From a virus, in the IMG/VR virus record IMGVR_UViG_3300048907_000336: a DNA stretch of 64,000 nucleotides; one strand, given 5' to 3'. Under the pieces are notes generated by a model. It had not been told where the DNA came from and ran no database searches. It saw only the letters and a program-made list of their open reading frames with translations. A program made the translations under genes and the position numbers. This document shows positions 7,640 through 34,420 of this stretch, piece after piece. Every line of letters starts with the position of its first letter. Position 1 is the stretch's first letter.

Positions 7640-9082
7640 ATGCAGACCGCTGTTCTCGACAAGTCGCAAATCTATCGCGGGGTGATGATCACCAAGGAAG
7701 CCCCTTCCGATATCAAGACCGGCGAAGCGGCCGCCGAAATGCTGCTGAAAGAGTTGGCTGATGTCACTGCGGCGATGCAGAAGACCAAGGCCGACATCGA
7801 CAAGCAATACACTGAACTTAACAACCACTACTCCGGCGTCAAAGCCGACAACGAGACCCTCAAGAAGACGGTCGAGCAGCACGGCAAGGAGTACGCCGAT
7901 CAGATCGTCAAGCTGCAGACGCTGACCCAGGCGTACGACCAGATCAAAAAGGAACTCGACGCCCCGATCATCAGAGGCGGCAAGGATCTGGAGGATTCGG
8001 ACACCCGGGCCGCCATTGAGTGTCAGCGCCGGGCGTTTCTGTTCAAGGGCGGCACCGAGGACGAGTTCGTCCCCAACACAGACAACCTGATCGTCGCCAA
8101 GCACTACCGCTCGGCGGTCAGGAAGCTGATGAAGGTCGGCATCGAGCCGCGCCAGAAGATCATTCGCTCGTTCACCGAGATGGAGACCAAGGCGTTCGAG
8201 GCGTCGTCGCTGGATTCGGCGTTCTTCTCGCCGGAGCTGCTCGGCATCGAGATCGATTGTATCGTGACCTGCGCTGAGTTGCTGGATCTGTATTCCAGCG
8301 TCACCGTCGGCAAGTCGTCGTTCATGTATCCTCGCGTCAACGACTACGGCGCGATTGGTCAGTACGACTGCGATGCCAAATGCGATGCTGAGTTCGGCCC
8401 CGAGGGCAACATTCAGTATCTCAACGGCAAGACCTACGATTGGCGCGGCGTGTTCTGCTTCCAGCGCAAAGTGCTGGCCGAAGCCAACTACGATCTGCTT
8501 GGCTTCATGTACCGGGCGGCGCAGCGCGCCTACCGCATCGCGCGCAATCAGGCACTGATGATCGGCGACGGCCAGAACATGCCGCTGGGCTGGATGAAGG
8601 CCGACAATTGCTTCCAGGTGCGCACCACGGCGTCGGCGGCGGTGACGCACGTCGAATTCCGCGCCATCTACTCGTCGATCCCGGTGGAGTACGGCGGCCC
8701 GATCACGGCGGTGATGCACCAGAATGCGTTCACCCATCTGGCGACCCAGACCGACAGCATCGGCCGGTTCTTGTTCGGCGACGGCATCATGGCGTACTCG
8801 CCTGCCAATGTCAGCGAGAACATCCGTATCTCGAACTGCCTGTTCGACCCGACGCACAACCTCACTGTCGGTTCTGGCGGCAGCCCGCTGATCTCCGGCG
8901 ATTTCTTCTGCGCGGTGGGCAACTGGAAGATGGCGTACTACGCCGTCAGCAAACGGCCGCTCTGGATCGAGCAGTGGGAAGGCAAGTCGAGCGCGTGGTG
9001 CGTGGCCTATGCGCTCGGGGCCGAGGATGGCGGCTTCATCGGCTGCTGCCGGGCCGCCACCATCCTCAACGTCGGGCCGTAA
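7640..9082 (+). CDS. major capsid protein (HK97 fold) with coiled-coil N-terminal delta domain
   Basis: Follows the protease; helical N-terminus, then a capsid core (RNQALMIGDGQNMPLG); 480 aa. Confidence 0.88.
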   Translation: MQTAVLDKSQIYRGVMITKEAPSDIKTGEAAAEMLLKELADVTAAMQKTKADIDKQYTELNNHYSGVKADNETLKKTVEQHGKEYADQIVKLQTLTQAYDQIKKELDAPIIRGGKDLEDSDTRAAIECQRRAFLFKGGTEDEFVPNTDNLIVAKHYRSAVRKLMKVGIEPRQKIIRSFTEMETKAFEASSLDSAFFSPELLGIEIDCIVTCAELLDLYSSVTVGKSSFMYPRVNDYGAIGQYDCDAKCDAEFGPEGNIQYLNGKTYDWRGVFCFQRKVLAEANYDLLGFMYRAAQRAYRIARNQALMIGDGQNMPLGWMKADNCFQVRTTASAAVTHVEFRAIYSSIPVEYGGPITAVMHQNAFTHLATQTDSIGRFLFGDGIMAYSPANVSENIRISNCLFDPTHNLTVGSGGSPLISGDFFCAVGNWKMAYYAVSKRPLWIEQWEGKSSAWCVAYALGAEDGGFIGCCRAATILNVGP

Positions 9083-9109
9083 TCCCCTCATTCAGAAGGA
9101 AACCCATCC

Positions 9110-9514
9110 ATGCAGTTCAACTACGCGATTCAGAACGCGGGCGTCCTGACTTGGGACGGCACTGCGTCGCACCCGGTCGATGTGCGCGGCTATAACGGCT
9201 ACGCCTTCACCTTCACGGTCACTGCCGATCTCGCGGCCGACGCCGTGATCAACATCCAGGCGGCTCCCGCCGGGAGCCCCGACCCGTGCGTGCCCGGCAC
9301 CTTTGCCGACGTGCCGGAGGTTCTGACCTGTGTCGCCGATTGGGGCGCAGTGCCGGGGCCGCAGAGCACGATCACCGTTCCTTCGGGCACCAAGAAGGGA
9401 GCGCGCTGCACCGCAGGCATTCCCTGCCCGGTGGGTGCGTTCGTCCAGGCCGTGCCGACCGCTGGCGGGGCCAGTCTGATCGGTGTCGTGACCCTGCACG
9501 GGCCGCAGCACTGA
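9110..9514 (+). CDS. putative head decoration/structural protein
   Basis: Directly after the capsid gene with AGAAGGA RBS; beta-rich with 4 Cys. Confidence 0.55.
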   Translation: MQFNYAIQNAGVLTWDGTASHPVDVRGYNGYAFTFTVTADLAADAVINIQAAPAGSPDPCVPGTFADVPEVLTCVADWGAVPGPQSTITVPSGTKKGARCTAGIPCPVGAFVQAVPTAGGASLIGVVTLHGPQH

Positions 9515-10172: not shown

Positions 10173-10325
10173 ATGACTTTGCCAACGACTTGCACGCCGC
10201 CTTGCGGCGGGTCCAACGCTCTGCCGCTGGCGGTGCCAGCCTGCTTCGCTTGCCCGCCGACGGCATTGGCGTTCGGGCAGGCCAATGTGCCGGAACAGAA
10301 GACCGAGAATACCACGACTAAGTGA
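10173..10325 (+). CDS. 50 aa Cys/Pro/Thr-rich peptide (absent from the ORF track)
   Basis: AAGGAGG RBS; MTLPTTCTPPCGGSNALPLAVPACFACPP...TTTK*. Confidence 0.5.
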   Translation: MTLPTTCTPPCGGSNALPLAVPACFACPPTALAFGQANVPEQKTENTTTK

Positions 10326-10363
10326 TCGACACACTGCCGAGGTCTTATTGGAGGCGTAGAGCT

Positions 10364-11080
10364 ATGCTGCAGTTCACCATCGATGCGGCCCCGGCAGTGC
10401 AGACGCCTGACACCTGTCAGACCTGCTGCTGCGATGTCATTCAGATGCGGCCGGGCACCACCGAGAAGATCGCCATCGACTACACGATGTGGGTCGCCAA
10501 TGTCGGCAGGCTGCACTGCGTCCCGCAGTTTCAGCTTGAGCAACAAGCGACCTGCGGGGTGTCGGGTGGAGCAAACCTCCCGCCCCAACCGGCACCCCAG
10601 GTGGCATTCACCACCGCGATCAACACCGTGCTGAACGGCGATCTCGGCACCCTGGTGACCGACCCCGAAGGTGACCCGCTGACGTTCAAGCTGGTGTACT
10701 GGCCCTATGGCCTGCAGAAAGGCAGCGTAGCCATCGACCCCAGCGGCACCTTCGTCTACACGCCGCTGGCCAACGCGCAGGGCATCGACCGCTTCTATGC
10801 ATCGGTCAGCGACGGCATCAACGCAGCGGTGGTTTTCGAGGCGATTGTCGGCGTCGGCCAGCCGATCACCAACGTCGCCAACACCCCGCACGTGTCGGTG
10901 CTGCAGGACGGCGTGCAGATCAACTACAACTACAATCGCGTGTCGTTTCCGTTGCAGGTCACGCCAGCAGCGCAGTTGTGCGAGGTCTGGCGGCTCAATG
11001 TCTATCAGGGCGCAATCGACTGCGAGAACGTTTGCTACAATCGCGTCGATTGCTACGACATCAGGCTAGCTAAGTGCTGA
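10364..11080 (+). CDS. Ig-like/cadherin-like (Big_9-type) virion protein
   Basis: VTDPEGDPLTF...GSVAIDPSGTFVYTP...GIDRFYASVSDG; GGAGG RBS; flanking Cys clusters. Confidence 0.7.
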   Translation: MLQFTIDAAPAVQTPDTCQTCCCDVIQMRPGTTEKIAIDYTMWVANVGRLHCVPQFQLEQQATCGVSGGANLPPQPAPQVAFTTAINTVLNGDLGTLVTDPEGDPLTFKLVYWPYGLQKGSVAIDPSGTFVYTPLANAQGIDRFYASVSDGINAAVVFEAIVGVGQPITNVANTPHVSVLQDGVQINYNYNRVSFPLQVTPAAQLCEVWRLNVYQGAIDCENVCYNRVDCYDIRLAKC

Positions 11081-11829
11081 ACACGACGACGACTCAGCCC
11101 GCTGGCGACCCGGTCCCGCTTATCATCGGCACCGAGACGCCGCTCGATTGGAGCGGGCGGTTGTCGCTCGATTTGATCAGGCAGCACACCAAGACCGACG
11201 ACATTCCCGGCACCACTGACGCGCTGCTGGCGACGTACCGCGCCGCTGCGGTCGAGGCTGCCGAGTTCTACACCGGCTTGCTGCTGTCGGCGCAGAAGGT
11301 CATCCAGGAGCCGGTTCACGGTCCTGCCTTTCCACGGCACCATCACCATGCCAGCCCCTACGGCTATCATCTGCAGCCGTCGTTTGGGCTGGTGCCGGTC
11401 AAGCCGTATTATCGGGTGCGGCTGCAGTACGCGGTGTCCGACGGCATCGTCTACATCTCCGGCGGCCAGCATCCCGGCACCAACATGCCGATACGGGTGA
11501 AGCCCGGCACCCGCAGTTTTCAGATGCCGATACGTTACGGCTATCTCGATCTCACCAATTGCTGCAACCCGTGTTCTGAATATCGGCCCAATGCCGGGAT
11601 GCTGGCGACCTACCGGGCGGGCTATGCGTCGGCGGCCGACGTGCCGAACGGCGTCGTGCTGGGCTGCCTGCAATACATCGCCTGGGTGCTGCAGCATCCT
11701 GGTGATGAGATCTTGACGGTGCGCAATCGCCGTGACGCGCGTTCTGAAGGGGCTATGGGCACCAACAACATCGCCATCGCTTCCGGCGCGCTGGAGACGT
11801 GGCGTATTTTAGATACAGACATCCTATGA
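11074..11829 (+). CDS. head-tail connector (gp6-like)
   Basis: LLATYRAAAVEAAEFYTG and YRAGYASAADVPNGVVLGCLQYIAW; position. Confidence 0.75.
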   Translation: MLNTTTTQPAGDPVPLIIGTETPLDWSGRLSLDLIRQHTKTDDIPGTTDALLATYRAAAVEAAEFYTGLLLSAQKVIQEPVHGPAFPRHHHHASPYGYHLQPSFGLVPVKPYYRVRLQYAVSDGIVYISGGQHPGTNMPIRVKPGTRSFQMPIRYGYLDLTNCCNPCSEYRPNAGMLATYRAGYASAADVPNGVVLGCLQYIAWVLQHPGDEILTVRNRRDARSEGAMGTNNIAIASGALETWRILDTDIL

Positions 11830-12050: not shown

Positions 12051-12051
12051 G

Positions 12052-12866: not shown

Positions 12867-12867
12867 G

Positions 12868-12957
12868 ATGCGGCCGCCTCCATACATTTTGATTATGTTG
12901 GCGATGGTCGTTGTAGCTCTAGTGCTGATGTTCTTCATCATTCCAGCGGTTAGATGA
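12868..12957 (+). CDS. 29 aa single-TM peptide (absent from the ORF track)
   Basis: MRPPPYILIMLAMVVVALVLMFFIIPAVR*; ATGA overlap with the next gene. Confidence 0.4.
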   Translation: MRPPPYILIMLAMVVVALVLMFFIIPAVR

Positions 12958-13577
12958 ACGTCGTCGATCAAGACGCATTCCAAGTTTCTCCTACCAGCGA
13001 CATCCGGCTCCTGCCTGCGCTTGCCGAAGCCATCGCCGAGTGGTTCCCGGAATTAGAGGGCCGGTCGCTGGCGGTATCCGATGCAACTATCACCAAAGAA
13101 AACACCCCGACGCTGCCGCTGGTGATGTGCGGGTTTGTTAAAAGCATGGGGAAGTCGCCTTCGAATAGTTACAACGGCATCGTCAATGTCGAAGATACGT
13201 TCGTTGTCGAGTTCTGGCTCAAGCCGGTGCGATATAAGAACGACAAAGGCGAGACCCCGTTCTGGTCGTATTATCCCTACGAACAGATACGTGACACGCT
13301 GCTGACCAACATCACGCGCTGGCCGACGCCGAATGGCGAGCGCATCGCTTACCGCGCCATGCATCTCACCGCCGACCCATTCGCGGTGACGCTGACTTTC
13401 GGGTTCATCGCGTCGTTCCAGTGGTGTGCGTCCAACCCGCCGCAAGGCGACCCGTTCAAGATCAGCTTTAATCTCTGTCCACCTCCGGGCATTTGTTGGC
13501 CTGACGAAGTGAACATTTCGGCCGACGGAAATCCGTCTGAGAGGAGTTTAAGACGATGGAAGCAGCACACGCCGTAG
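12954..13577 (+). CDS. putative tail completion/terminator protein
   Basis: Position between the gp10-like gene and the sheath. Confidence 0.5.
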   Translation: MNVVDQDAFQVSPTSDIRLLPALAEAIAEWFPELEGRSLAVSDATITKENTPTLPLVMCGFVKSMGKSPSNSYNGIVNVEDTFVVEFWLKPVRYKNDKGETPFWSYYPYEQIRDTLLTNITRWPTPNGERIAYRAMHLTADPFAVTLTFGFIASFQWCASNPPQGDPFKISFNLCPPPGICWPDEVNISADGNPSERSLRRWKQHTP

Positions 13578-14134: not shown

Positions 14135-14172
14135 GTATCAGCATCGGTTTTGGCAAGAAGAGGAGGCCCAAT

Positions 14173-14403: not shown

Positions 14404-15927
14404 ATGGCGATTGACTCCCTGCGCTCCGGCGCAATCAGGATCTGCTTCGATCCCTCGCTGAATGCCTACCCGTCGAAGTGCCGGGTGCTGGTCGAGGGTC
14501 AGATGCTCGACACCGGCGATGCCGACCCCGATACGCTGCGCAAGATTCCGGCGTTGCGCGATGTCGATACTTTGTTCGGCGCGGGCAGCGTCATTTCCGA
14601 AGGCTTGAAGACGGCGTTCGGCTGCTGCCCGACCCAGGCGATGGAATTCTACGCGCTGCCGCGTCAGGACGCCGATGTCGGAGCCACGGCGGCAGCGGTG
14701 TACACCATCACCTTTACCGGCACCGCCACCTCCGACGGCCGGGTCGACATCTTCATCGCCGATGGCCGCTGGAATACTTCGACGCTGGTGCACGAGAACG
14801 ATGTCCCGCTCGACATCGCCACGGCGGTGGCGGCGGCGCTGAATGTTGACCCGACGCTGCCGTTCACGGTGACTGCCGCCACCGGCACGGTGACGTTGAC
14901 GGCGAAGAACAAGGGCACCGTCGGCAACGGCATGATGCCGATCTTCAACTGGCATCAACGGCTTAACTACGCGCCTGCGGGCGTCACCGTGGATATCGCG
15001 CAGAGCACCACGGGGTTGAGCAGCGGTGCCGCGAATATTCTCGATTATTCGGCGATCCTGGGTGAGTGCTGCTATTGCTGCATCGCCATGCTCTATGACG
15101 ACACCGCTTGGCAGGACGCGATGATTGCGTACATTGCCGATGCGTGGTCTTGTGATCACCCGCAGTGTTTCGGCCACGGGTACACCTACAACAGCGGCAC
15201 GCTCGGTCAGGTGCTGGCGACCGATACTAACAGCGCCGAAGTCTCGCGCATGGCTTGCTGCGATACCGACCCGCAGCCCGGCTGGCTGAAAGCGGCGGCT
15301 TATGCGGCGTTGTCCTGCTGCTCGACCGTGGACAATCCCGAGATCAACGTGCAGGGACCGCAGTTTGGCGTGCTGACGTGTTTGCGGCAGCCGGAGAGCT
15401 GCTTCCAATGCTGGACTTGGGACGAACAGCAACAGTTGGAGGCGACCGGCTTCGTGGTTACGGTCCCGCTCAACGGCGGCACCGGCGAGATGACGCAGCC
15501 GATGGTCGTCAACGACATCACTAATAACAGGTACGATTCCAACGGTCGCTTGAACGCAACGTGGTGGAATGTCAGTTCGCGGCGTCTTGCGGCGGCTACT
15601 GCCGACGCCGCTGCGATTCAGCTTGGCCGGGTGCTCGGGCTTGGGCTCTACACCAAGAACACCACCATTCCCCCGGGCATTCGCGGCACCAACCCCCGGC
15701 TGATCCTGGGCGCGTTTCGGGCCTGGGCGAAGTCGCAGGTCGGCATCCTGTTCTCGGAGTTCGACAACATCGATACCGACATCGTGCTGCGCACCGATTT
15801 CGAGATCGCGCCGAAGTGTCAGGGCATTCCCGGCAAGCTGTGGTTGGATTTCATCTACCGGCCGCCGGTTCGCATCAGCAACATCATCATCAACGCCAAG
15901 CCTGCGCTGCTTGACAACTGTCACTAA
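14404..15927 (+). CDS. contractile tail sheath protein (Mu gpL-like)
   Basis: 507 aa; TLFGAGSVI, VTLTAKNKGTVGN, LDYSAILG; AAGGAG RBS. Confidence 0.88.
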   Translation: MAIDSLRSGAIRICFDPSLNAYPSKCRVLVEGQMLDTGDADPDTLRKIPALRDVDTLFGAGSVISEGLKTAFGCCPTQAMEFYALPRQDADVGATAAAVYTITFTGTATSDGRVDIFIADGRWNTSTLVHENDVPLDIATAVAAALNVDPTLPFTVTAATGTVTLTAKNKGTVGNGMMPIFNWHQRLNYAPAGVTVDIAQSTTGLSSGAANILDYSAILGECCYCCIAMLYDDTAWQDAMIAYIADAWSCDHPQCFGHGYTYNSGTLGQVLATDTNSAEVSRMACCDTDPQPGWLKAAAYAALSCCSTVDNPEINVQGPQFGVLTCLRQPESCFQCWTWDEQQQLEATGFVVTVPLNGGTGEMTQPMVVNDITNNRYDSNGRLNATWWNVSSRRLAAATADAAAIQLGRVLGLGLYTKNTTIPPGIRGTNPRLILGAFRAWAKSQVGILFSEFDNIDTDIVLRTDFEIAPKCQGIPGKLWLDFIYRPPVRISNIIINAKPALLDNCH

Positions 15928-16550: not shown

Positions 16551-17006
16551 TTGACGTGCGACAACCAAGTTGGTGTGAAAAACATCATCATGTCGTTCCG
16601 TGACTGCGACACCGATGTCGTGTACGGCCCGATCTCGCATGTGCTGTCGTCGGAGGATCTGCCGACGTGGCGGTTGTGCGCGTACAACAACGACCCGCTG
16701 CCGCATGGCTATGTCAAACGCAAGCCGACCAACCCGGAGGTCGAGATCAAGGTGATTCGCGATCTCCGCATTCCGCTGGCGATGTACCAAGGCTGTTCCG
16801 ATGTGAACCTGCAGGTTGAGTATTACAACGGGCTGGTCTATTCGGCGGCTAAGGGCACCGGCACCGGCGACGACAAGAGCGACACCCACGAAGTGTCGAT
16901 GAAGATCACCTTCATCGAAATCGACGAAATGCTGCCGCAGGGGACGTTGCAGCCGACGCCGGAATTGGTGCAACCTACCTTCGCTCCAGCCCCTAGCACG
17001 GTCTAG
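16551..17006 (+). CDS. tail tube protein
   Basis: 151 aa following the sheath/HNH; AGGAGG RBS with TTG start. Confidence 0.65.
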   Translation: MTCDNQVGVKNIIMSFRDCDTDVVYGPISHVLSSEDLPTWRLCAYNNDPLPHGYVKRKPTNPEVEIKVIRDLRIPLAMYQGCSDVNLQVEYYNGLVYSAAKGTGTGDDKSDTHEVSMKITFIEIDEMLPQGTLQPTPELVQPTFAPAPSTV

Positions 17007-17781: not shown

Positions 17782-20697
17782 ATGTCCTTCATCGAAAGTG
17801 CAACGCTCAAAGTAATTGATGAGTCCAGCGGCGCGATCAACAAGATCAACGCTGAACTCCGCAAGTTGCAAGCGACTGCAAGGTCGTTAAAGAGCGTCAG
17901 TGTCAGTATCAGCGTTCAGGATAAGGGCATCCAGAACGCAATTCGTAATCTCCGCAGCCTGAACCGGGAACTGCTGCGTGCTAAGTCGGCATCCAGCGGT
18001 TTCAGCATCGGCACTCAGGTGAGTGGGTTGCAGCAAGCTGCCAACCAAGCGCAGCGGATGGCGACCTACATGACGCGCGCCAATCAGCAGGCGGCTTTGG
18101 CAGCGCGTCAACCAGTACAAGCAGCACAGCGCGCTGCTGCGGCACAGCGGGCCGCTGCAGCACCGGCACGGCAGCGTGGCGGCGGTATCGGCCTTCCTCC
18201 CCATATCGGCTACGGCTTTGCCGCCGGTCTTGGCGGTTTCGCTGGTGTCACCGCAGCCGCCATTGCTCATCATCTAGGCCGCGAAACCAAGAAAGGCATC
18301 GAAGAGTCTGACATCGCCGAACAGGCGTTGCGGATGAAGCAGATCGATACTGTGACGAAGACGCCAGGAGCAGAGGCGGCTTTCCGGGAAGATATAAAAC
18401 GTATTGGTGAGGAGAAGGAGAAGCTGTACGGCCCGGAGGGAATCGCTGTTAAAGGTGCTGGCGGTGCGTTTTTCAATCTGGCTCAACGCAAACAGGTCGC
18501 GTCCGAAGCGTTCGGTATCACCGCCGATCCCGAAAAAACCGCGAAAATGGTCAGCCAAGTCGAAGAGCTGGCGCGTACCAACTTCCTGCTCGGCGGCTCG
18601 ATGGAGCAGGCGACCGACAACGCTTACAACTACATCAAGGGTCTTGATGCGATGGGCCGCATCAACATCCACAATCAAGAGCAGATGGACCAAGCGATTG
18701 CTCGCGGAGAATTTGCGCCCGGAACTAAGGTAAAAGATTTTCCAAACGCCCCGTTCTCAGAAGGACGACTGGCGGAATCTGTCGAGTATTTGCAGAAGAT
18801 CGCGCCGGAAATCGGCAAGGAAATGACCGGCGGCTTCTTCCGGCAGATCTCGAAATACATGTCGGGCTCGAAATACGCTGCCGATTGGCGCGCCATCGGC
18901 GCGACTTTGCTGCTCGGTGAAGATATCGGCACTCGCGCCGCCGTCGGCTACAACCAAGCCGTCAAGCAACTCTCTGGCCGTGGCATCACCAAGGCGATCA
19001 ATGCCAACCAGATGGCGGCCGGGCTCGGCCGGGCACAGACCGAAGCCAGTAAGAATTTGCTGCTGCACGATCTGCCAAAATGGTTGGGCGAGGGTCTGCG
19101 TGATCCCGCGACCGGCCAGTACATCATGGGAAAAGACAAGAAAGGCAGAGAACGGCCAATAGTTGAAAGTTTTGCCGACATCGCCAAGCGTAAGTGGGGG
19201 CTCGACACCACCACGGCGGAAGGGGCGTATGAGGCGGCAGCCAAAGTGGCGGGTGATCGCACTGCGGTCGACGCCATCGCTGCGTTTTTATATAACTACA
19301 AAGAAATCAAGCAGAAGCTCGATCAAGCCGACCTGCGCTCCGGTAAACCAGAGGATATTCGTCGGCTCACGGCGGACAGCCCGCGTGTTCAGTTCGCCAC
19401 GCTGGAAAGTCAGTTGCAGTCCACCACTGCCGAGTTCGTCAAGCCGCTGTTGAAAGCGGCGATACCCATGACTGAATCGATTCGCAAAGGTCTTGCCACC
19501 CAGGCGGCTGACATCGAAGAGAAAAGCCGGAAGGGAACGCTGGGGCCAGACGATTATCGAACTATCTTTGCCGGGTTGGGAGGAATTACTGAATTATATG
19601 CCGCCAAACAATTGGCTGAAGGTAACGTTCCCGGGGCGATAGCGACGGCAGGAGCTGGCGCAATGATCGCGGCGGGGCCAGAGCTGTTGAAGGCAGGCGG
19701 TTTGTTGAGCAGTGCCGCAGCAGGACTTGCTAAACTGTTCGGCATTGAGCTGCCGAATTTGGATAAGGATAAAAAAGAAGGCGATGCCAAGAAGGAGAAC
19801 GCGGCAAGTAAGGTCGTCGATGATCTTATAAAAGCGGCTCCACCCCAAATCAGGCTCCCTGTTGAAGCTGCTGAGCTTGCTTGGGGCGTGTTCAGAAGGT
19901 TTATGACTCCACTTTCGCCGGAAGCCCAAGTGGCGGCGAAAGCTCGATCTGATCTTGATTTCAAACAGGCCAAACTTGCCGAGGATTTCAAACGGCTAGC
20001 GGCGATAGCCGAGGAACACAAGATCCCCGAAGGCTTGGCCACGCCTAGTGAACTAAATTACATGCGGCGTCACAAAGGTGAGATGCCTGAATCTTTGAAG
20101 ACAAAGATCGAGGCTGAGCGAACAAAGCTGCAAGTAGAAATCGGTAGGAATCTACGCGAGATCGACGAGCTTAGGACGAAGTTGGGTCTGGACCAGAAGC
20201 CAAAGCCGCCGGAAGAAAAACCGCCTGAACCGACACCCGCCGCTGAGATCGAACAGGGCGTTAGAGATGGCACCGAGAAGGCGAACGAGAAGGGGGTTCG
20301 CGTCATCGAGGACGGCCGCCCCGAAGGCGTGCCGGTCACCACTGCTGGACCGCCACCGGCGCTGCCGTGGGTGCCGGGCACCGAAGTTCCGGCAGTGCCA
20401 ACGGTCGAGCCGCCGCCAGCAACTCCCTGGAGCGAGGATGCGACCAAGGTGAGCGAGGCAGCAACTACACTGCAAACTGGGCTGAGTACGGGTGCCGGGC
20501 AAATCCAGGCCGCTGCTTCGTCGCTAGCGGAAGGCGGCAGTCAGGCTGCATCGATCATTGCTTCGGGCGCTCTTGCTGCGGGCGCGGCCTATGGTGCCGC
20601 CGCAGCCGCCGCGATTTCGGCTGCCGCCGCGAATGTTCACATCAATGTCAGCCAAAGCGGCGGCAAGCCCGACGCGGGCGCGCAGAAAACTGAGTAG
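17782..20697 (+). CDS. tape measure protein
   Basis: 971 aa, Ala/Gly/Lys-rich and helical; position; no cysteine seen. Confidence 0.8.
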   Translation: MSFIESATLKVIDESSGAINKINAELRKLQATARSLKSVSVSISVQDKGIQNAIRNLRSLNRELLRAKSASSGFSIGTQVSGLQQAANQAQRMATYMTRANQQAALAARQPVQAAQRAAAAQRAAAAPARQRGGGIGLPPHIGYGFAAGLGGFAGVTAAAIAHHLGRETKKGIEESDIAEQALRMKQIDTVTKTPGAEAAFREDIKRIGEEKEKLYGPEGIAVKGAGGAFFNLAQRKQVASEAFGITADPEKTAKMVSQVEELARTNFLLGGSMEQATDNAYNYIKGLDAMGRINIHNQEQMDQAIARGEFAPGTKVKDFPNAPFSEGRLAESVEYLQKIAPEIGKEMTGGFFRQISKYMSGSKYAADWRAIGATLLLGEDIGTRAAVGYNQAVKQLSGRGITKAINANQMAAGLGRAQTEASKNLLLHDLPKWLGEGLRDPATGQYIMGKDKKGRERPIVESFADIAKRKWGLDTTTAEGAYEAAAKVAGDRTAVDAIAAFLYNYKEIKQKLDQADLRSGKPEDIRRLTADSPRVQFATLESQLQSTTAEFVKPLLKAAIPMTESIRKGLATQAADIEEKSRKGTLGPDDYRTIFAGLGGITELYAAKQLAEGNVPGAIATAGAGAMIAAGPELLKAGGLLSSAAAGLAKLFGIELPNLDKDKKEGDAKKENAASKVVDDLIKAAPPQIRLPVEAAELAWGVFRRFMTPLSPEAQVAAKARSDLDFKQAKLAEDFKRLAAIAEEHKIPEGLATPSELNYMRRHKGEMPESLKTKIEAERTKLQVEIGRNLREIDELRTKLGLDQKPKPPEEKPPEPTPAAEIEQGVRDGTEKANEKGVRVIEDGRPEGVPVTTAGPPPALPWVPGTEVPAVPTVEPPPATPWSEDATKVSEAATTLQTGLSTGAGQIQAAASSLAEGGSQAASIIASGALAAGAAYGAAAAAAISAAAANVHINVSQSGGKPDAGAQKTE

Positions 20698-20837: not shown

Positions 20838-22034
20838 ATGTCTAGATCCAACTGTGCCATCGGTCGCGGTTACGTCCCGGCGTCGTTCAAAGGTGTGTTG
20901 TTCGACTGCATCGATGCCGATGCCGAAGGCGGCCGCCGTGGTGCCGAAGGTGAATTTCCGTTCGGCGAGGACACCGCATATTGCGATCTCGGCCGCAAGA
21001 TCAGGCTGTACAAACTCAACGCTGTTTTCCGCGATGACGATCATGTCGCCGCGTCTCAAGCTCTGTTTCAGGCTTGTCAATCGCCGGGACCGGGGATGCT
21101 GGTGCATCCCACGGCGGGCACCGTTATGGTGGCCTGTCGCAGCGTCACCGTCAAAGACACGCCGGAGGAGCCCGGCGAGACTCGTGTCTCGCTCGACTTC
21201 GTCGAAGCCAATGTCGCGGGCGGGCTCGGCAGCCTGGGCAATGCGCTGTTCGGCATCATTTCCACCGGGCTCGCCGGGGCATCGCAGGCATCGTTCTTTG
21301 CGGGCTACCGCACGTTCTTTGTGTCGCAGCCGTGGCAGCAGGACGTGATCGCCACCACACAAATGTTGATCAGTACCGTGGCGACGACAGTTGCGTTGGC
21401 GCTGCCTGCCGACGCTCCGGCGCAGGATTGGCGCAACGTGGCAAAGATGCAGGAAGTCGCCACCGATGCCGGGCTCGCGGCGATGCCGCAGAAGGTCGAT
21501 GCCGCGCTGGCCTACGGGTTCAACGCCGTGGCGGTGAATATCCAAGACGCACCGACGCGCTATACCACGATGCGCAAATTGGCCAACATCGCGGCGTTTA
21601 CGTCGACGCTACCAGCGGGGGCTGCGCAAGAGAGCGAGGAGGCGGTGTTGCAGCGACATCGCCTCCTCGCTGCCGTCGGCATGGCCGAAGCGGCAATGGC
21701 GATGCGGTACGCCACGGTCGATGACGCGCTCAACACCATGGATCAGGTCGCTGCGGTGTTCGACGACGAAGCGCAAAAAGCTTACGACGAATGCGACAAC
21801 GTGCTGTACCTCGAATTGGAAAAGTACGTCACCCAGTTTCGCACCACGATGAACCAGCTTGCCTATCGGCTGCCGCCGGTGATCACTGTCAATTTCGGTG
21901 GCGGCGTGCATCCGCTGGTCGCCGCCTATGTCATTTACAAAGACGCCAAAAGACATCGTGAATTAGAACCGCGCAACGTGATCGACGCCAACGGTCGCTT
22001 CGGCCCGCTGGTTACCGGAATTGCACCGGCATGA
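20838..22034 (+). CDS. DNA circularization protein (Mu gpN-like)
   Basis: PASFKGVLF...GGRRG..EFPF..DLGRK; C-terminal HPLVAAYVIYKDAKR..ELEPRN. Confidence 0.85.
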   Translation: MSRSNCAIGRGYVPASFKGVLFDCIDADAEGGRRGAEGEFPFGEDTAYCDLGRKIRLYKLNAVFRDDDHVAASQALFQACQSPGPGMLVHPTAGTVMVACRSVTVKDTPEEPGETRVSLDFVEANVAGGLGSLGNALFGIISTGLAGASQASFFAGYRTFFVSQPWQQDVIATTQMLISTVATTVALALPADAPAQDWRNVAKMQEVATDAGLAAMPQKVDAALAYGFNAVAVNIQDAPTRYTTMRKLANIAAFTSTLPAGAAQESEEAVLQRHRLLAAVGMAEAAMAMRYATVDDALNTMDQVAAVFDDEAQKAYDECDNVLYLELEKYVTQFRTTMNQLAYRLPPVITVNFGGGVHPLVAAYVIYKDAKRHRELEPRNVIDANGRFGPLVTGIAPA

Positions 22035-27061: not shown

Positions 27062-27087
27062 CGTTTTTATCACAAGGAGGAATATGC

Positions 27088-27789: not shown

Positions 27790-28341
27790 ATGGCCATATT
27801 AGATCCCTGCTTAGAACAAACCAAAGGCAGACGCCGGGTCTTCTGGACCACGCAGCGAATCGCTTGCGGTGAATACAATCAGTGCGGTGCCACCTGCGCG
27901 CTGCCGGGGCTGCAATACGAGAACACGGCCGAAGGCCGCACCATCGTCAACGACGAATGGCTGGTGTCGCTGATACTCAATATCCTCAACACCCGGGCGC
28001 GCAGCGATCTGCAGTGTCCGACGCCGATGGCGATCTATGGCCATTGGTCTGAGAGCTATCGCAAGGACGGGCTCTATATCGGCTCGACGCTCTGGAACGC
28101 CGCTGAGAAGAAATACATTCGCATCGCCGACAGCGTTCGCGCCATCGAGGCAGCGGTTAAGGCCGACATGGCCAAGTTGGTCGCGCTCGAACTCGCATCC
28201 AGCGTCAACGTCGCTGCCGAGTATATCGGTCGCAGTCAGGTCGCGATCATGGTCGAGGCCGTGGTGGCGCAGAACAAGCATGTTCTCAACTTAGCCGGTT
28301 CGTTCGTTTCCGGCGCTTGGGTTTGGCAGTATCCCACATGA
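27790..28341 (+). CDS. baseplate protein (Mu gp46-like)
   Basis: LILNILNTRAR...GHWSESY...IGSTLW. Confidence 0.75.
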   Translation: MAILDPCLEQTKGRRRVFWTTQRIACGEYNQCGATCALPGLQYENTAEGRTIVNDEWLVSLILNILNTRARSDLQCPTPMAIYGHWSESYRKDGLYIGSTLWNAAEKKYIRIADSVRAIEAAVKADMAKLVALELASSVNVAAEYIGRSQVAIMVEAVVAQNKHVLNLAGSFVSGAWVWQYPT

Positions 28342-29543
28342 CCTGTGTCATCCTGCGGCCTGACCCCCAGGCACTGTTCGACCAAATCAAGAATCAGTTC
28401 GCCTCGACCGTGCTCGGCGGCGGGCTGGTGATCCCGGAAAGCAACGAGTGGTATGTCGTCTCCAACGACTACGCCGCTGCCGAACAATTCTTCGCCATCG
28501 CCGACCAGATGTGGCGTGAGAACAACCCGGCGACGGCATGCTGCGACAACCTCTACAAGATGGCAGCGGCGAATGGGGTGTTTCCGCGACCGGCGACGAC
28601 GGCGCAAGGCTATGTGAGATTGACGGGCACCGCTGGCGCGGCGGTGCCGCCGGAGTTCGAAGTGTCAACATCCCAGGGCACCTACGTTTCCGTTGGCACC
28701 GTTCCCATGACCATTCCCGCCACCGGCACGGTTGTGGTGCGGGTGCAGGCGCTGCTGCCGGGGCCTGATTTCAATTCGGCAGGCACGGTCACCGAAGGCA
28801 CGCTGACGACGCCTGCACCCAATATCGACGACACCGTCATCGTCTGCGGCGGGCTGTTCTGTAACGGCGCAGTCGCGGAAGACTGCGAGACTTTCCGCAA
28901 ACGCTATCTAAGCCGCCTCACCTATCAGCCCCACGCCACCCAGGCTTGGGCGAAGGCAAAGCTTCTGGAATTTCCCTGCGCTACGCGGGTGTGCGTGCGG
29001 GAGGGTGCCTGCTGCAAATGCAACGCGCAATGCTCCGAATGCGGCTGCGTTAACTGCGGCAACCGTCTGGAGTTCTACGTATTGTTCGACGACAGTTTTT
29101 CCTGCGGCATTCCCCCGCAGAACGTCGTGGATGACATCAACACGTGGTTCTTCGGCGAGCACCAGGGGTACGGCGAGGGGCAGGTTGAAATCGGGGTCTG
29201 CGGGCTGATTCATACGCCCATTCCTTTACTTGTAGACGTAGTGATCGACATCGAGGGCTGCCCGACATCGACGCAGAAGCAGGTTATCAATGACCTTATT
29301 GTTGCGTTGTTCCGCCGCATCTGCCCCAGCATCCCGCTGCGGGTCAAGCAAATCGAGCTGCTGATCGCGTCGGTGATCGGGGCTGACGTCAACGCTTCGG
29401 CGCGATTTGTCCTGGTCGATGGCGAAAACCGCAGCGCGGTCCTCGTCAATGTCTGTGGCGATCTGGAAGTCGAATGCGACGTGCTGCCGTGTCTGCGTAA
29501 CATCACTTACACCGGCCCAGACAGCTTGAAGCCGCCGTGCTGA
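28338..29543 (+). CDS. baseplate J-like protein (Mu gp47-like)
   Basis: RPATTAQGYVRLTGTAG, EDCETFRKRYLSRL; 23 Cys. Confidence 0.85.
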   Translation: MTCVILRPDPQALFDQIKNQFASTVLGGGLVIPESNEWYVVSNDYAAAEQFFAIADQMWRENNPATACCDNLYKMAAANGVFPRPATTAQGYVRLTGTAGAAVPPEFEVSTSQGTYVSVGTVPMTIPATGTVVVRVQALLPGPDFNSAGTVTEGTLTTPAPNIDDTVIVCGGLFCNGAVAEDCETFRKRYLSRLTYQPHATQAWAKAKLLEFPCATRVCVREGACCKCNAQCSECGCVNCGNRLEFYVLFDDSFSCGIPPQNVVDDINTWFFGEHQGYGEGQVEIGVCGLIHTPIPLLVDVVIDIEGCPTSTQKQVINDLIVALFRRICPSIPLRVKQIELLIASVIGADVNASARFVLVDGENRSAVLVNVCGDLEVECDVLPCLRNITYTGPDSLKPPC

Positions 29544-30838
29544 CCCCGTCTCAATCGAGCTACACGTTTCCCATTCCCCCCGGTTACGCGCTCACTGCCG
29601 ACGGCTGCCAGCCGGTCGCAGTGATCGACGACCCGGCGTGCTGCCCGCCGCCGCTGTGCGGCAACGACCTGTGCTGCACCTTCGTTGCCTTCTTCAATCT
29701 GCTGCCGTCGGGGCCCTTGTGGGACTTCTGGAAGGCGAAAGCGATTTCGTACTTCCAGCACAACCCCAACCCCGACCCGATGCAGTGCCCGCTGATCAAT
29801 GACCCTGACTGCCCGTCGCTGGTGCTGCACGCGATCTACTGCGTGCTCAAGCTCAAGGCGGTGGTGCACGACGCGCTGTGGCCCGCGTTGCGTGAGAGCA
29901 ACCCGGCGACGGCGGTGACCACGCTCGACTACTGGGTCACGCAGTTACAGTGGGAGGACTGCTACGCGCAGCATTGCCGCTCGCTGCTGCTCGGCACCTT
30001 GACGCCCTACGAGATCAACAGCGATTGCGGGCCGCTGTTCTGCCCGGCCGACATCGACCCTAAGCTGCTCGATGCGGTCAAGCATGGCGTGCTGAAGGCG
30101 CTGTCGCGTTTGCAGATGGGGGTGATCAAGAACCTGTGCGGGCTGAATTGGGTCATCGCCCCACTCAATACCGAGATCGTCGTCAAGCAGCCGCAATCGC
30201 CGAACCCGCCGCTACCGCCGGAGCCCGATCTCAACCAATGCCAAGGCTACTGCGCGGAGCCGATCAGCTTCGTGGTGCAGCCGATCAGCGACAAGCTCGA
30301 CGCCGTCGGCAACGGCGAACTGTGCGAGACCCAGATGCCGCCGGAGCAAATCCCGGCCTACTACGATTGGGGCTGCATGACCGACTTGCCGATGGGTCTG
30401 CCCTACCAGATCTGGCCGGGCGTGCTGGCAGCCGAATGCATCGTGCGGTCGCTGATGCCGGTGACCTGCCCCACCAACATCATCCGGCACGACTGCGATA
30501 AGTTCAATCTCACGGCATTAATTCAGGAGCGCGCCAACGCCATGGCCGCCGTCGATGCCTTCGTCGTCAGTTTCAACTACGCCGTGGTCGAAAAAGCAGC
30601 GGCGACCGACACCGTCGATGCATCCATGGCCACCGGCTCGATCAGGGAGCAGGCGCACGCCGCCGACAGCGTCAGCATCGCCAGCGGCAGCAGCTATGTC
30701 GTCCTGATTGAAGAGAAAGCCAAAGCCCGAGACACCGTGAGTTACGGCGGTGGCGGCATCTACACCGTTTCGATTGTCGAGAACGCCAACGCTCAAGCCA
30801 GTGTCACCCTTCCTGTAGTGAGAGAAGACGATGCCTAG
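29537..30838 (+). CDS. baseplate wedge (Mu gp48-like) with a C-terminal repeat extension
   Basis: FFNLLPSGPLW...ESNPATAVTTLDYW; Cys-rich body then five ExAxAxxxV repeats. Confidence 0.7.
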   Translation: MLTPSQSSYTFPIPPGYALTADGCQPVAVIDDPACCPPPLCGNDLCCTFVAFFNLLPSGPLWDFWKAKAISYFQHNPNPDPMQCPLINDPDCPSLVLHAIYCVLKLKAVVHDALWPALRESNPATAVTTLDYWVTQLQWEDCYAQHCRSLLLGTLTPYEINSDCGPLFCPADIDPKLLDAVKHGVLKALSRLQMGVIKNLCGLNWVIAPLNTEIVVKQPQSPNPPLPPEPDLNQCQGYCAEPISFVVQPISDKLDAVGNGELCETQMPPEQIPAYYDWGCMTDLPMGLPYQIWPGVLAAECIVRSLMPVTCPTNIIRHDCDKFNLTALIQERANAMAAVDAFVVSFNYAVVEKAAATDTVDASMATGSIREQAHAADSVSIASGSSYVVLIEEKAKARDTVSYGGGGIYTVSIVENANAQASVTLPVVREDDA

Positions 30839-33059
30839 CATCTTCCCCGAAACCATGGCTGGCGGCGTCTTCATTCGTGACGCCAGCGGCAACCCGCTGT
30901 ACCCGCAGGGGGTCGAGAACGCCTACGCACCGGCGGCGGGTTACATCTCGACCTGTCAGTTCACGGCGCTGCCCAGCGACTGCACGGCGCGGTGGGAGCC
31001 CCGGCAGGCCAACGCCATCGTCTCGGAGATGCTGTCGCTGGCTGAGTGCTGGGATGCCGATGGGGCCTGGGATTGCGGCACTCCGCACAATCTCTGCACC
31101 TCGTTCAATTCGTGGGTGAACAGCACCCAGATCAATCAGATCGGCAACAAGGTGGATCGCGCTGGCGACACCATGACCGGCGATCTGACCATTCAGAAGA
31201 ACGGCCCGACGTTGCAATTGGTCAGGACGGTCAGCAGCGGCGGCGCGGCGATTGTCGGCAACCAGGGTACTTATGGAAACTATCGCTGGTCGGTCGTGCT
31301 TGGCGATGGCACCGCAGAACAGGGCGGTAATACTGGCTCGAATTTCGAGATTAACCGTTTTGCCGATGACGGCTCGCTGCTCGGCAGTGCGCTTGAATTT
31401 GACCGCGCCACCGGCAGCGCCAATTTTTACGGGCAGGTGGTCAACATCGACGGCAACTACTACGGGCCGGTGACGCTGGACCTGCGAACCAACAGCCCCG
31501 GCCAAGCGGTCACGATCTGGGGCGGCAATCTCAGCACCGGGCACCGCTGGGCGATGCAGCTCGGTGAAGGCACGGCGGAAACCGGCGGCGATGCCGGGTC
31601 CAATTTCGCCATCTACAACTGTTCCGACAACGGTGCAGTCAAAAGCGGGGCGCTGCAGATCAGGCGCACCGATGCGCATGTGACGCTGTCGGAAACCATG
31701 TCGGTGGCGCGCGACCCGGCAGCGCCGCTGGAAGTGGCGACCAAGCAATACGTGGACAATGTCTCGACCGGCGGCTCCGGCGGTGCCTATGTGAACAGGA
31801 CCGGCGACACCATGACCGGCGATCTGCACATCAACGCCAATGGCGTGATGATCTCCGGCGGTGCGGCGCAAATTCAATTCAATGCCAGCGGTGGTGTCAA
31901 TAATACCGGGTTTCAGATCGGCCGGTCGTTGTCCGGTACCAACTCCAACGATTTCTACATCTACAATGCCGTTGCCGGTAACACACCTGTTTTCATCAAC
32001 AACGCCGGTTTTATCGGCATCGACACCAGCAACCCGGTGGTGCAGTTGGACGTGAATGGCGACATTCGCGCTCGCGACACCATTCAGATCCAGCACCCGA
32101 CCTCGTCGCAACTGCAACTGCTCGATGCGAACGGCACCGTTAAATACCAGATCGGCCGTTCTCTCGGCGGCGGCAATGCTCAGAATTTTTACATTGTCGA
32201 TACGCAGTCGGGCTCAGCCCCATTCATCATCGCTCCTAACGGCGCTATCGGTATCAACAACCTGCAGAACCCAGTTTATTCTCTGGATGTCAACGGTAGT
32301 TTCCATTGCACCCAGGTTGCGGTGATCGATTTCGCCACCCGCGCCATCAGCGGTGCCGGTGGCGGCGATGCGGCACTCTGTGTCAAGACCAACGCCACCG
32401 GCTTCGGCGGCATGCTCGCGACCAACATGAATAAAGGCCAGTATGACGCCGCTGCCGTCTGCGTCATGGGTGCCGACACGGCAATGGGGTTTATCTGCGC
32501 AGGCAGCAACAATTTCACTCAGCTCGCCGGTTCCGGCACCGTTAATATCGGTTCGACCAACGTCGCTGTCGGCTTGGTCGCCGGTAACAATCTGGCCGGG
32601 GTTATCAGCCCCAACGGCACGCTGACCTGGGGCAATCCCACGCCCGGTGCCAGTGCTCCCGGCGTCATCAACGCCCAGGCCGTGTTTGACGACAGCGTGC
32701 AGTTGACCTGCTTCGGCGTCGAGCAACTGATTGACGGCAAGCTCGATGTCGAGAAGTGGGACCAGCGCAGCTCGACCGGCCGCAGCGATCTGGTGCATCG
32801 GTTTAAGGACATGCTCGATGCCGGGTACCAACCCGACGACCCGGCGAGCTACATCGACAGGCTGATGCAGGATCGGGCGCTGCCGGGAATGCCGAACGAA
32901 GCCGAGTGGAAACAGAACGGGCAAAGCCTGGGCGAGATCCACAACCGGCTGTGGCTGTCGGTCGAACTGTTGGCTGCTGCATTTGTCGGCAACTACAGCC
33001 GACAGGAACAACGTATCCGCGATCTTGAAGCGCAAGTCGCCGCATTGCTGAAGGAGTAA
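30831..33059 (+). CDS. tail fibre / receptor-binding protein
   Basis: ANAIVSEM N-terminal anchor, GDTMTGDL and VATKQYVD motifs, beta-rich repeats, C-terminal coiled coil. Confidence 0.8.
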   Translation: MPSIFPETMAGGVFIRDASGNPLYPQGVENAYAPAAGYISTCQFTALPSDCTARWEPRQANAIVSEMLSLAECWDADGAWDCGTPHNLCTSFNSWVNSTQINQIGNKVDRAGDTMTGDLTIQKNGPTLQLVRTVSSGGAAIVGNQGTYGNYRWSVVLGDGTAEQGGNTGSNFEINRFADDGSLLGSALEFDRATGSANFYGQVVNIDGNYYGPVTLDLRTNSPGQAVTIWGGNLSTGHRWAMQLGEGTAETGGDAGSNFAIYNCSDNGAVKSGALQIRRTDAHVTLSETMSVARDPAAPLEVATKQYVDNVSTGGSGGAYVNRTGDTMTGDLHINANGVMISGGAAQIQFNASGGVNNTGFQIGRSLSGTNSNDFYIYNAVAGNTPVFINNAGFIGIDTSNPVVQLDVNGDIRARDTIQIQHPTSSQLQLLDANGTVKYQIGRSLGGGNAQNFYIVDTQSGSAPFIIAPNGAIGINNLQNPVYSLDVNGSFHCTQVAVIDFATRAISGAGGGDAALCVKTNATGFGGMLATNMNKGQYDAAAVCVMGADTAMGFICAGSNNFTQLAGSGTVNIGSTNVAVGLVAGNNLAGVISPNGTLTWGNPTPGASAPGVINAQAVFDDSVQLTCFGVEQLIDGKLDVEKWDQRSSTGRSDLVHRFKDMLDAGYQPDDPASYIDRLMQDRALPGMPNEAEWKQNGQSLGEIHNRLWLSVELLAAAFVGNYSRQEQRIRDLEAQVAALLKE

Positions 33060-33064
33060 CCTCG

Positions 33065-34420
33065 ATGACCGGCATCATGCCTGACAGCGGCGTCCCTTGC
33101 ACCGACGCCAGGAATTCGCTCTGCACCCCGATCATCAGCCCAAACTGCAACGGGCTGTGGTACAGCACCTCGCGCTGCACTCCGCGATTCGATCCTGCGG
33201 CAGCCAATGCCGTCGAGGCCGAACTGATCAACCTGATCAACAAGGCCGCGATGACCTACGACTGCTCGCGGCTCGATCAGGTCGAGCACGCGGCCCGCTA
33301 TCTGATTCAGCGTGGATTGCCGCGCGCGGCAGGGTTCGGCAGCGGCCCGGTGAATTTCACCACCTCGCTCGACCCGACCGCCACCGGCTACAACGACTTC
33401 ATGACGTTGACGGCGATCTCGCTGATGACGTGCGGCAACTACCCCACGCTCAACGTCGATGGCCTGGGCGTGCGGCCGATCCTGCGTAATGACGGCCAGC
33501 CGCTGCTATACGGCGACATCGTCGGCGGCAAGCCGTTCATCATCGCTTACTTCGCCGGGGCTTGGTATCTGTGCGGGCTGGCGCAATCGCAGGTGCCGAT
33601 CATCGCCGGGTCGGTCGATCTTTGGATCAGAACCGACGGCAATGACAGCACCGGCGACGGCAGCGCCAACACGCCCGACAAAGCCTTCGCCACCATCGAT
33701 GGAGCCTGGGCCAAGGCCGGTGGCCGCTACGCTTCGACGCCGCTGTTCACCATGAACTTTCGGCTCGGCATTCCCGGCACCTATCGCGGCGGCGCGATGG
33801 GGCCATTCGGCGGCAACGTGTCGCTGACCGGCGATATCAACGCCCCCTCGCAGTATATCCTGACCGGCCGCGATATCGGCAATAATAACTGGGCCTCGCT
33901 CGCTGCCACCTACATCTCGGAAATGCGAGTCAGCGGGGTGACGTTGAACCGCGATGCGCCGCCGCCTTATTCCGCCTACGCTGCCTGGGTTGGCGGTGGC
34001 GGCGGCCGCACGTTGTTTGATCACTGCATCTTTGATACTCGGCAAGCCAATCCCAGCAGCGCCTTCCTCAATATCGGCGGCGGCTCTGCCGGTTGCAGCA
34101 GCGACACCACGTTCTATGGCCGTGGCCTGCCGATCTCGGCGCTGCTCATCACCAATTACGGCGGGCTGTGGGCCGGTGGCGGCTTCCCCGGTCCCGTTTA
34201 CTTCGACTTCATCGATTGCCCGATTACTTCCGTCGGCTCATCGATGGCAGCGGGCGGTCTCAGCGAGATCAAATGGGACACCACGGCGGTGCTCAGGTCG
34301 AACAACGTCACCGGGCCGCAATACATGGTCACCGAAAACTCGATCATCACCATGCACGGCAACCCGTGTCCGGGCACGGTGGCGGGCTCTCAGAGCAACG
34401 GCGGGCTGTTCATCCCATAG
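33065..34420 (+). CDS. tailspike/fibre with putative beta-helix domain
   Basis: ANAVEAELINLI anchor; WIRTDGNDSTGDGS..KAFATIDGA beta-helix cap motif. Confidence 0.75.
   Translation: MTGIMPDSGVPCTDARNSLCTPIISPNCNGLWYSTSRCTPRFDPAAANAVEAELINLINKAAMTYDCSRLDQVEHAARYLIQRGLPRAAGFGSGPVNFTTSLDPTATGYNDFMTLTAISLMTCGNYPTLNVDGLGVRPILRNDGQPLLYGDIVGGKPFIIAYFAGAWYLCGLAQSQVPIIAGSVDLWIRTDGNDSTGDGSANTPDKAFATIDGAWAKAGGRYASTPLFTMNFRLGIPGTYRGGAMGPFGGNVSLTGDINAPSQYILTGRDIGNNNWASLAATYISEMRVSGVTLNRDAPPPYSAYAAWVGGGGGRTLFDHCIFDTRQANPSSAFLNIGGGSAGCSSDTTFYGRGLPISALLITNYGGLWAGGGFPGPVYFDFIDCPITSVGSSMAAGGLSEIKWDTTAVLRSNNVTGPQYMVTENSIITMHGNPCPGTVAGSQSNGGLFIP

Follow-up and report, generated by a model that had tools for sequence, protein, structure and literature searches.

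Covalent hardening of an entire virion by disulfide bonds has been described for the Agrobacterium phage Milano, in which disulfides connect the capsid, decoration, linking, neck, collar and sheath proteins within and between subunits, and in which dithiothreitol (DTT) takes away the particle's uncommon tolerance of sonication and of 60 °C (PMC10491603, Sonani et al. 2023). The tube, sheath and baseplate of this phage are fully cross-linked as well, which was in part confirmed by mass spectrometry, and contraction in vitro requires both guanidine and DTT (PMC10811340, Sonani et al. 2024). The network was mapped by cryo-electron microscopy (cryo-EM), and how its bonds are formed and broken in nature was left open by the authors (PMC10491603, PMC10811340). 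A capsid disulfide network as in Milano was seen in the 2025 structure of phage 7-7-1 (PMC12796354), and Milano, 7-7-1 and OLIVR4 belong to the genus Schmittlotzvirus (PMC10491603, PMC10811340, PMC12796354). The virus record IMGVR_UViG_3300048907_000336 of IMG/VR, a stretch of 64,000 nucleotides that is referred to in its full length as the window, encodes a myovirus structural module that retains most of the cysteines (Cys) forming the inter-subunit bonds of Milano. Judged from this homology, the particle of the window phage would be a covalent disulfide chain-mail as in Milano, with a probability of roughly 0.85; the phenomenon as such is already published for these relatives (Milano, 2023-24).

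The window runs from the terminase through the lysis genes to a replication module with a family A DNA polymerase, a primase-polymerase and helicases. Complete relatives have 65-75 kb, so that the 64 kb represent a nearly full phage genome. Its structural module was identified with Pfam and PHROGs, and a BLAST comparison of all window open reading frames (ORFs) revealed a co-linear gene series from terminase to short fibre that is shared with Milano and with Synechococcus phage Yong-L2-223. Besides this gene order, the window shares with Milano and its genus homologues of the capsid and decoration proteins, the linking peptide, the collar, neck, sheath and tube and the centrepiece and wedge proteins, a tape measure that is free of Cys and, at Pfam level, the lack of a phage thiol oxidoreductase. 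Protein identity amounts to 37-50% with Milano and 7-7-1 and up to 62% with Yong-L2-223. For the sheath, identity is 62% with the Synechococcus phages Yong-L2-223 and Ssp-JY38 and 47-49% with the Agrobacterium phages Milano, OLIVR4 and 7-7-1, and the capsid protein is 59% identical to that of Yong-L2-223 and Ssp-JY38 (GenBank OM868081, PP438428). Searches against PDB chains led to the published structures: the sheath matched 8fop (phmmer E 1e-148), the capsid protein 8fwg, which is Milano gp9 (E 1e-145), wedge 2 8fqc and 9rku (E 1e-108 to 1e-110), wedge 3 chain J1 of 8fqc (E 1e-48) and the collar 8fwc and 9rkt (E 1e-24 to 1e-30). The window covers nearly all of the genome of a myophage from soil that belongs, in a wider sense, to the clade of Milano and 7-7-1. 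The proteins concerned, all encoded on the + strand, are the following:

7640..9082, +, major capsid protein (HK97 fold), 12 Cys (Pfam Phage_capsid; PDB 8fwg)
9110..9514, +, minor capsid/decoration protein (Milano gp10-like), 4 Cys (BLAST to Milano gp10 and Yong-L2-223)
10173..10325, +, LP2-like capsid linking peptide of 50 amino acids (aa), C-x3-C...C-x2-C (regular-expression search)
10364..11080, +, collar protein (Milano gp13-like) with CxxCCC motif, 11 Cys (PDB 8fwc/9rkt)
11074..11829, +, neck 1/head-to-tail connector (Milano gp14-like), 4 Cys (BLAST)
12954..13577, +, tube terminator (Milano gp18-like), 4 Cys (BLAST)
14404..15927, +, tail sheath, 19 Cys (PHROG 165; PDB 8fop)
16551..17006, +, tail tube, Cys at 3, 19, 43 and 82 (Milano positions)
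17782..20697, +, tape measure, 971 aa, no Cys (gene position; N-terminus similar to those of the Milano and Yong-L2-223 tape measures)
20838..22034, +, baseplate centrepiece (Mu N-like, Milano gp25-like), 6 Cys (BLAST)
22031-23434, +, baseplate hub, 3 unconserved Cys (Pfam Gp44-like, PHROG 177, hub and spike region)
23413-24132, +, central spike, no Cys (Pfam Gp44-like, PHROG 177, hub and spike region)
27790..28341, +, wedge 1 (Milano gp28-like), 5 Cys (BLAST)
28338..29543, +, wedge 2 (Baseplate_J, T4 gp6-like), 23 Cys (Pfam PF04865; PDB 8fqc/9rku)
29537..30838, +, wedge 3 (Milano gp30-like), 21 Cys in residues 1-320 (PDB 8fqc chain J1)
30831-33059 and 33065-34420, +, two receptor-binding proteins with invariant N-terminal Cys for baseplate attachment

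Each window protein was aligned with its Milano and Yong-L2-223 orthologues, and every Cys in the inter-chain bond tables of the Milano papers was mapped. In total, 56/66 of the Cys that form inter-subunit disulfides in Milano are retained. Retention is complete in the capsid protein (9/9), the decoration protein (4/4), the collar (7/7), the tube (4/4), the tube terminator (1/1), the centrepiece (2/2), wedge 2 (8/8) and wedge 3 (7/7), and partial in the sheath (6/8), wedge 1 (4/6), the short-fibre N-terminus (3/7) and neck 1 (1/3). The four Cys missing from the short fibre sit in its non-homologous distal domain, and in neck 1 only C167 could be aligned with one of the three Milano disulfide Cys, with C163, C164 and C198 close by. 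Of the Cys in Milano intra-chain bonds (Table S4), 19/24 are retained; the others have been lost pairwise, as in wedge 3, where C212-C277 corresponds to S244/N314, or rewired.

The conservation of these residues was assessed in about 120 environmental relatives from IMG/VR, obtained by alignment-based scans that gave 78 loci for the sheath region and 43 for that of wedge 3; scanning viral contigs with a single protein had yielded one locus, and a three-sequence alignment 78. Conservation was calculated as the frequency with which relatives keep the Cys of the window, compared with the same value for all residues, in 20-68 relatives per protein. Cys of the network proteins are 84-100% conserved at overall identities of 37-66%. 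The respective values for Cys and for all residues are 1.00 and 0.66 in the tube, 0.99 and 0.46 in the decoration protein (n=56), 0.99 and 0.50 in wedge 1, 0.92 and 0.60 in wedge 2 (n=46), 0.91 and 0.37 in the collar, 0.90 and 0.64 in the sheath, 0.85 and 0.56 in the capsid protein and 0.84 and 0.37 in wedge 3 (n=45). In contrast, the controls gave 0.27 and 0.51 (portal), 0.45 and 0.44 (terminase) and 0.00 and ~0.5 (hub). An initial annotation of the window, made from the letters alone, had proposed a disulfide-stabilised myovirus and had named Cys conservation in related genomes as a check; conservation far above background in the network proteins, with portal, terminase and hub not following, together with the 56/66 retained bond Cys and the homology to the cross-linked Milano proteins, supports this proposal.

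The Cys content of the window had drawn attention to these proteins, and the hand counts given in that annotation were reproduced exactly by ORF listing and Cys counting: 12 Cys/480 aa in the capsid protein from ATG 7640, 19/507 in the sheath (14404-15927), 23/401 in the Baseplate_J protein wedge 2 from ATG 28338 and 21 in the wedge 3 ORF (29537-30838), the last at residue 320 of 433, next to 0/971 in the tape measure (17782-20697) and 0/239 in the spike (23413-24132). Its motifs are also present, namely ECCYCC at sheath residue 221, TCQTCCC at residue 31 of the ORF listed for the collar (10322-11080) and, in wedge 2, a 16-residue CCKC...CVNC cluster at residue 232. The 14 window proteins homologous to cross-linked Milano proteins contain 139 Cys in 4659 aa (2.98%), compared with 0.54% in the remaining proteins of the virion and its assembly (among them portal, protease, chaperone, tape measure, hub, spike and collagen-like fibre; Fisher p 2e-18) and 1.56% in non-structural ORFs (Fisher p 8e-8). 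At the non-structural rate, a complete lack of Cys in the 971-aa tape measure has p ~2e-7, and CC doublets occur 12 times as compared with 4.6 +/- 1.9 in shuffles. This enrichment is not due to chance. The suggested division into Cys-rich outer proteins and a Cys-free tape measure is not a simple split between outside and inside: the tube lies inside the sheath and yet has four invariant Cys, the exterior collagen-like fibre is poor in Cys (3/839 aa), and the distal domains of the receptor-binding proteins have few or unconserved Cys.

In the head and neck, 10/12 capsid Cys are at least 96% conserved among 50 relatives. The 50-aa ORF 10173-10325 matches the 38-aa Milano linking peptide gp128 in position and in the spacing of its four Cys, and in 54/56 relatives a corresponding micro-ORF is located upstream of the gene for the collar. 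For the collar protein itself, the ORF lister set a GTG start at 10322, while the alignment with Milano suggests ATG 10364. In the tail, C3, C19, C43 and C82 of the tube correspond to the inter-ring bond C3-C19 and the intra-ring bond C43-C82 of Milano and are 100% conserved in 65 relatives. At both ends of the tube the contact residues are kept: terminator C158 aligns with Milano C156, which is bonded to tube C3, and centrepiece C6 and C319 align with Milano C5 and C318, which lead to the tube and to wedge 2, respectively. The tape measure is devoid of Cys in all 20 relatives recovered, among them Milano and Yong-L2-223, and the spike has 0-1 Cys in relatives.

The sheath is most informative with regard to the pairing of Cys. 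The Milano bonds C14-C244, C216-C327 and C467-C501 correspond to C14/C250, C222/C333 and C472/C506 of the window, each 97-100% conserved, and C14-C244 and C216-C327 survive sheath contraction in Milano (PMC10811340). Among 69 sheaths, 12 core Cys are present in at least 95%. The remaining, variable Cys occur as modules of two residues: Cys at 226/305 are found together in 63 sheaths and lacking together in 6, those at 286/336 are found together in 61 and lacking together in 8, and discordant cases number 0 for either pair. Modules 176/287, 476/489 and 41/56 are seen in other lineages, and the module 47/186, which is the proven Milano pair C47-C182, shows the same both-or-neither behaviour. The number of Cys is even in 60/69 sheaths (binomial p 2e-10). 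In a sheath tree built without the variable Cys columns, 226 and 305 change four times each and 286 and 336 twice, and the independent contrasts for Cys pairs are all concordant among the contrasts listed. Only 1-2 Cys are present in sheaths that fall immediately outside the clade, those of Ralstonia YO375_1, Citrobacter phiNP and Shigella SfII (27-31% identity).

Compared with Milano, the window sheath has gained the pairs 226/305 and 286/336, and 73/303 has been replaced by 74/225, the two being mutually exclusive alternatives. Within the Milano chain, C73 is bonded to C320 and C303 to C26 (PMC10811340). Both partners are core residues in the window (C326 and C26), so that rewiring to 74-326 and 26-225 would be the likeliest arrangement. 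A further difference concerns contraction. In Milano, C47-C182 joins neighbouring subunits, from the body domain of the one to the next one's extension domain, and is the sole sheath bond that is broken on contraction (PMC10811340). The window phage lacks this pair and has K47 and R186 instead, its outer extension domain contains no Cys between residues 76 and 221, and both Cys occur only in Milano and 7-7-1 among the 69 sheaths. At residues 176/287, occupied by G and D in the window phage, a co-occurring Cys pair that spans from extension to body domain is present in 14 relatives, including sheath copies from Bradyrhizobium assemblies. From its position, this pair may be an independently evolved sheath lock, with the same domain pairing as C47-C182 at other positions.

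The wedge proteins show two-Cys modules as in the sheath, including the equivalent of the proven Milano wedge 2 bond C250-C379. Wedge 2 retains 8/8 Cys of Milano intra-chain disulfides and has seven Cys more than its Milano counterpart, four of which (C235, C239, C242, C244) lie in a loop from C232 to C247. Wedge 1 lacks C41, which in Milano forms a bond to the tailspike; a homologue of this tailspike, gp124, is likewise absent from the window, and the loss of C41 fits with the lack of this partner. In the receptor-binding proteins, the conserved Cys are confined to the N-terminus: C42, C51 and C82 of the first and C28, C38 and C67 of the second are 100% conserved, the latter being C29, C38 and C67 of the Milano short fibre, and distal Cys are 0-14% conserved.

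Taken together, these features suggest a sequence of events in which subunits would assemble in the reducing cytoplasm and Cys lying side by side at interfaces would oxidise once the surroundings become oxidising, presumably with no need of a phage-encoded catalyst. Bonds are predicted between capsid proteins and from these to the decoration protein and the small linking peptide, from neck to collar to sheath and between sheath subunits, from tube ring to tube ring and from the tube to the terminator and the centrepiece, and among the three wedge proteins, as well as from these to the N-terminal ends of both receptor-binding proteins. Those parts that would leave or pass through the tube, i.e., tape measure, spike and hub, have no conserved Cys. 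As in Milano, the network would be expected to provide mechanical and thermal robustness, with baseplate bonds being reduced prior to contraction. For Milano, the authors concluded that the baseplate bonds, including the one between C318 of the centrepiece and C3 of wedge 2, must be reduced before the tail contracts (PMC10811340). A similar gating may be expected in the window phage because the Cys of these baseplate bonds are all kept. Since the sheath bond C47-C182 is absent from the window and from almost all environmental relatives, a redox gate, if there is one, is probably located in the baseplate only. Oxidation after lysis, bond formation in the window phage and reduction at infection are steps that we infer.

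Several observations weigh against a Milano-like chain-mail. Ten of the 66 bond-forming Cys of Milano are missing, including two of three in neck 1 and the sheath pair C47-C182. The window sheath has an odd number of Cys owing to C285, which is unique to this phage, so that at least one thiol must be free or differently bonded. The patterns used for the retrieval of sheaths contain Cys, by which the conservation of C14, C250 and C255 is inflated; those used for wedge 3 contain none, and its values are free of this bias. Paired gain and loss amounts to only 1-4 independent events per Cys pair, so that a sign test on an individual pair could not reach significance. In addition, bonds might not form in anoxic micro-sites.

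An alternative explanation for the Cys clusters is metal binding, to zinc or as iron-sulfur sites, in some places at least. It applies chiefly to the wedge 2 loop C232-C247 with seven Cys in 16 residues: C177, C235 and C244 of wedge 2 co-occur as a block in 31/38 relatives, and the four additional Cys of the loop could form two more disulfides or a metal site, as they fit a Cys4 site equally well. There is also a precedent in the Milano spike, which binds an iron ion, albeit via histidines (PMC10811340). However, the homologous Cys flanking this loop in Milano (C223, C224, C234) are disulfide-bonded in the cryo-EM structure, a Cys metal site has been reported neither for Milano nor for 7-7-1, and even counts with paired gain and loss across the clade are what disulfides predict. 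As an account of the whole enrichment, metal binding is contradicted by the published effects of DTT. Metal binding is thus improbable as an alternative to disulfides.

A second alternative, slightly less probable still, holds that the Cys are conserved yet remain mostly reduced in a natural, possibly micro-oxic habitat, so that cross-linking would be conditional or a phenomenon of laboratory air. It draws on the statement of the Milano authors that the making and breaking of the bonds in nature is not understood, and on the failure to find a phage-encoded oxidase in the window or in five complete relatives. The initial annotation had seen no thiol oxidase in the window, and at the level of Pfam this holds: scans of about 70 window ORFs detected no member of the thioredoxin-fold, DsbA or Erv families, and Thioredoxin, Glutaredoxin, DSBA and Erv1/Alr had no match in Milano, Yong-L2-223 and three complete IMG/VR relatives, where the negative result for Erv carries little weight as the Erv control matched no control genome. 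As no phage oxidase was found, the bonds would form spontaneously in air after lysis or with the help of the host. Thiols that never pair are hard to reconcile with paired gain and loss and with the strong purifying selection under which more than 100 Cys positions stand, and one of the relatives infects an oxygen-producing cyanobacterium. The third alternative, that the richness in Cys has no structural meaning and results from base composition (59% GC) or chance, can point to a genome-wide Cys level of 1.7% compared with 0.9% in T4, and is already refuted by the within-genome contrast from 0% in the tape measure through 0.54% in other virion proteins to 2.98% in network proteins and by the conservation of Cys positions far above background.

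Two ORFs on the - strand were considered as redox proteins and rejected. A 91-aa ORF at 36969-37244 (-) contains CPHC, the active-site sequence of DsbA, at residues 15-18; it has no Pfam hit and a low GC content at third codon positions (GC3) of 0.60, and inspected by eye the rest of its sequence looks rich in helices and unlike thioredoxin. It probably does not adopt a thioredoxin fold, and it may not be a gene. A stand-alone TSCPD-domain ORF of the early region (39174-39518, -; Pfam PF12637, E 3e-7) has a single Cys and was discarded as a thiol shuttle.

Other features of the structural region differ from Milano or concern single genes. By BLAST, the window has no homologue of the Milano tailspike gp124, of gp1-3, of the Ig-domain linker gp16 or of gp125/gp127, the garland proteins. 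Wedge 3 has a C-terminal extension of 113 aa (30497-30838, +) that is free of Cys and absent from Milano and Yong-L2-223. An insertion between spike and wedge 1 (24135-27666, +), which these two phages lack, encodes an 839-aa tail fibre with collagen repeats, a C-terminal Peptidase_S74 chaperone domain and 3 Cys, as well as two smaller ORFs, one of 136 aa and one of 202 aa that is rich in Pro and Gly and contains PGQPPGIWGGAPLPPTGVWPG-like repeats in tandem. Next to the neck genes, the head-completion ORF (11854-12489, +), listed with 174 aa and a start at 11968, aligns to Milano gp15 only from about nucleotide 12076; translation probably does not include the N-terminal part, which is rich in Cys and Arg, and the count of 5 Cys is likely to be too high. 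Between the sheath and tube genes lies an ORF for an HNH homing endonuclease (15990-16541, +; Pfam HNH_3 and NUMOD4 in the batch that included it), with a GC3 of 0.46 compared with about 0.8 in its neighbours and absent from this site in Milano and Yong-L2-223. The 5 Cys that it contains have nothing to do with the network of the virion.

Yong-L2-223 and Ssp-JY38 are the closest cultured relatives. They share the Cys pattern (sheath 20, wedge 2 21, wedge 3 25, tape measure 0), infect the cyanobacterium Synechococcus and have receptor-binding proteins that are unlike those of the window phage beyond the N-termini; structural or redox work on them was not found in the literature searched. A megablast search with the structural module (22 kb) against 50,697 phage records returned no nucleotide match, so that relatives could be reached by protein comparison only. 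In ICTV practice, a genus is delimited at about 70% nucleotide similarity. On grounds of its low protein identity and the lack of nucleotide similarity, the window phage would fall outside the genus Schmittlotzvirus.

With respect to the host, sheath genes with shared Cys positions are encoded in the assemblies of Bradyrhizobium lablabi CCBAU 23086 (3001-4521 of locus L128, from a 303 kb scaffold; 72% identity) and Bradyrhizobium sp. Leo170 (L129; 66% identity). The location on a 303 kb scaffold suggests a prophage or a co-assembled phage, and on the basis of these copies Bradyrhizobium is a likely candidate host group. General Pfam scans of the window turned up no integrase family. In the Milano paper, the disulfide trait was suggested to correlate with the Agrobacterium host (PMC10491603). 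A clade that includes cyanophages and Bradyrhizobium copies does not fit this correlation.

Covalent cross-linking of subunits after assembly is also known from the capsid chain-mail of HK97, where the chemistry differs (Lys-Asn isopeptide bonds). The capsid disulfides of Qbeta, the disulfide-linked tail tubes of siphophages and Bacteroides phage PD491P1 (as cited in PMC13576161) are further cases in which the assembled particle is hardened, at Cys positions that are not homologous to those discussed here; in most of them a single component, capsid or tube, is cross-linked.

The Cys bias of the window would thus mark a covalently cross-linked virion, a design that is rare among tailed phages. 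The window phage adds breadth and not a new principle, as the design was published for Milano in 2023-24, and it extends the trait to a soil phage with only 37-50% identity to Milano. Whether the chain-mail is an ancestral hallmark of a widespread clade of 65-75 kb myophages, with the sheath lock as a late addition in the Milano lineage and redox gating restricted to the baseplate, stands at even odds. Such a clade may comprise the roughly 120 environmental contigs, the cyanophages and the Bradyrhizobium copies; about 100 core Cys positions may be fixed in it, with further bonds being gained, lost and rewired as modules of two Cys. A description of this clade-wide pattern was not found in the literature searched, the coverage of which was incomplete. 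The modest new points are the clade-wide conservation, which by including cyanophages argues against an explanation specific to Agrobacterium, the modular turnover of bonds, by which a fixed core is separated from dispensable modules, and the absence of the sheath lock, which makes the contraction-blocking sheath bond a speciality of Milano and 7-7-1. For structural virologists, the clade offers a natural set of variants in which to distinguish the disulfides that give robustness from those that gate infection.

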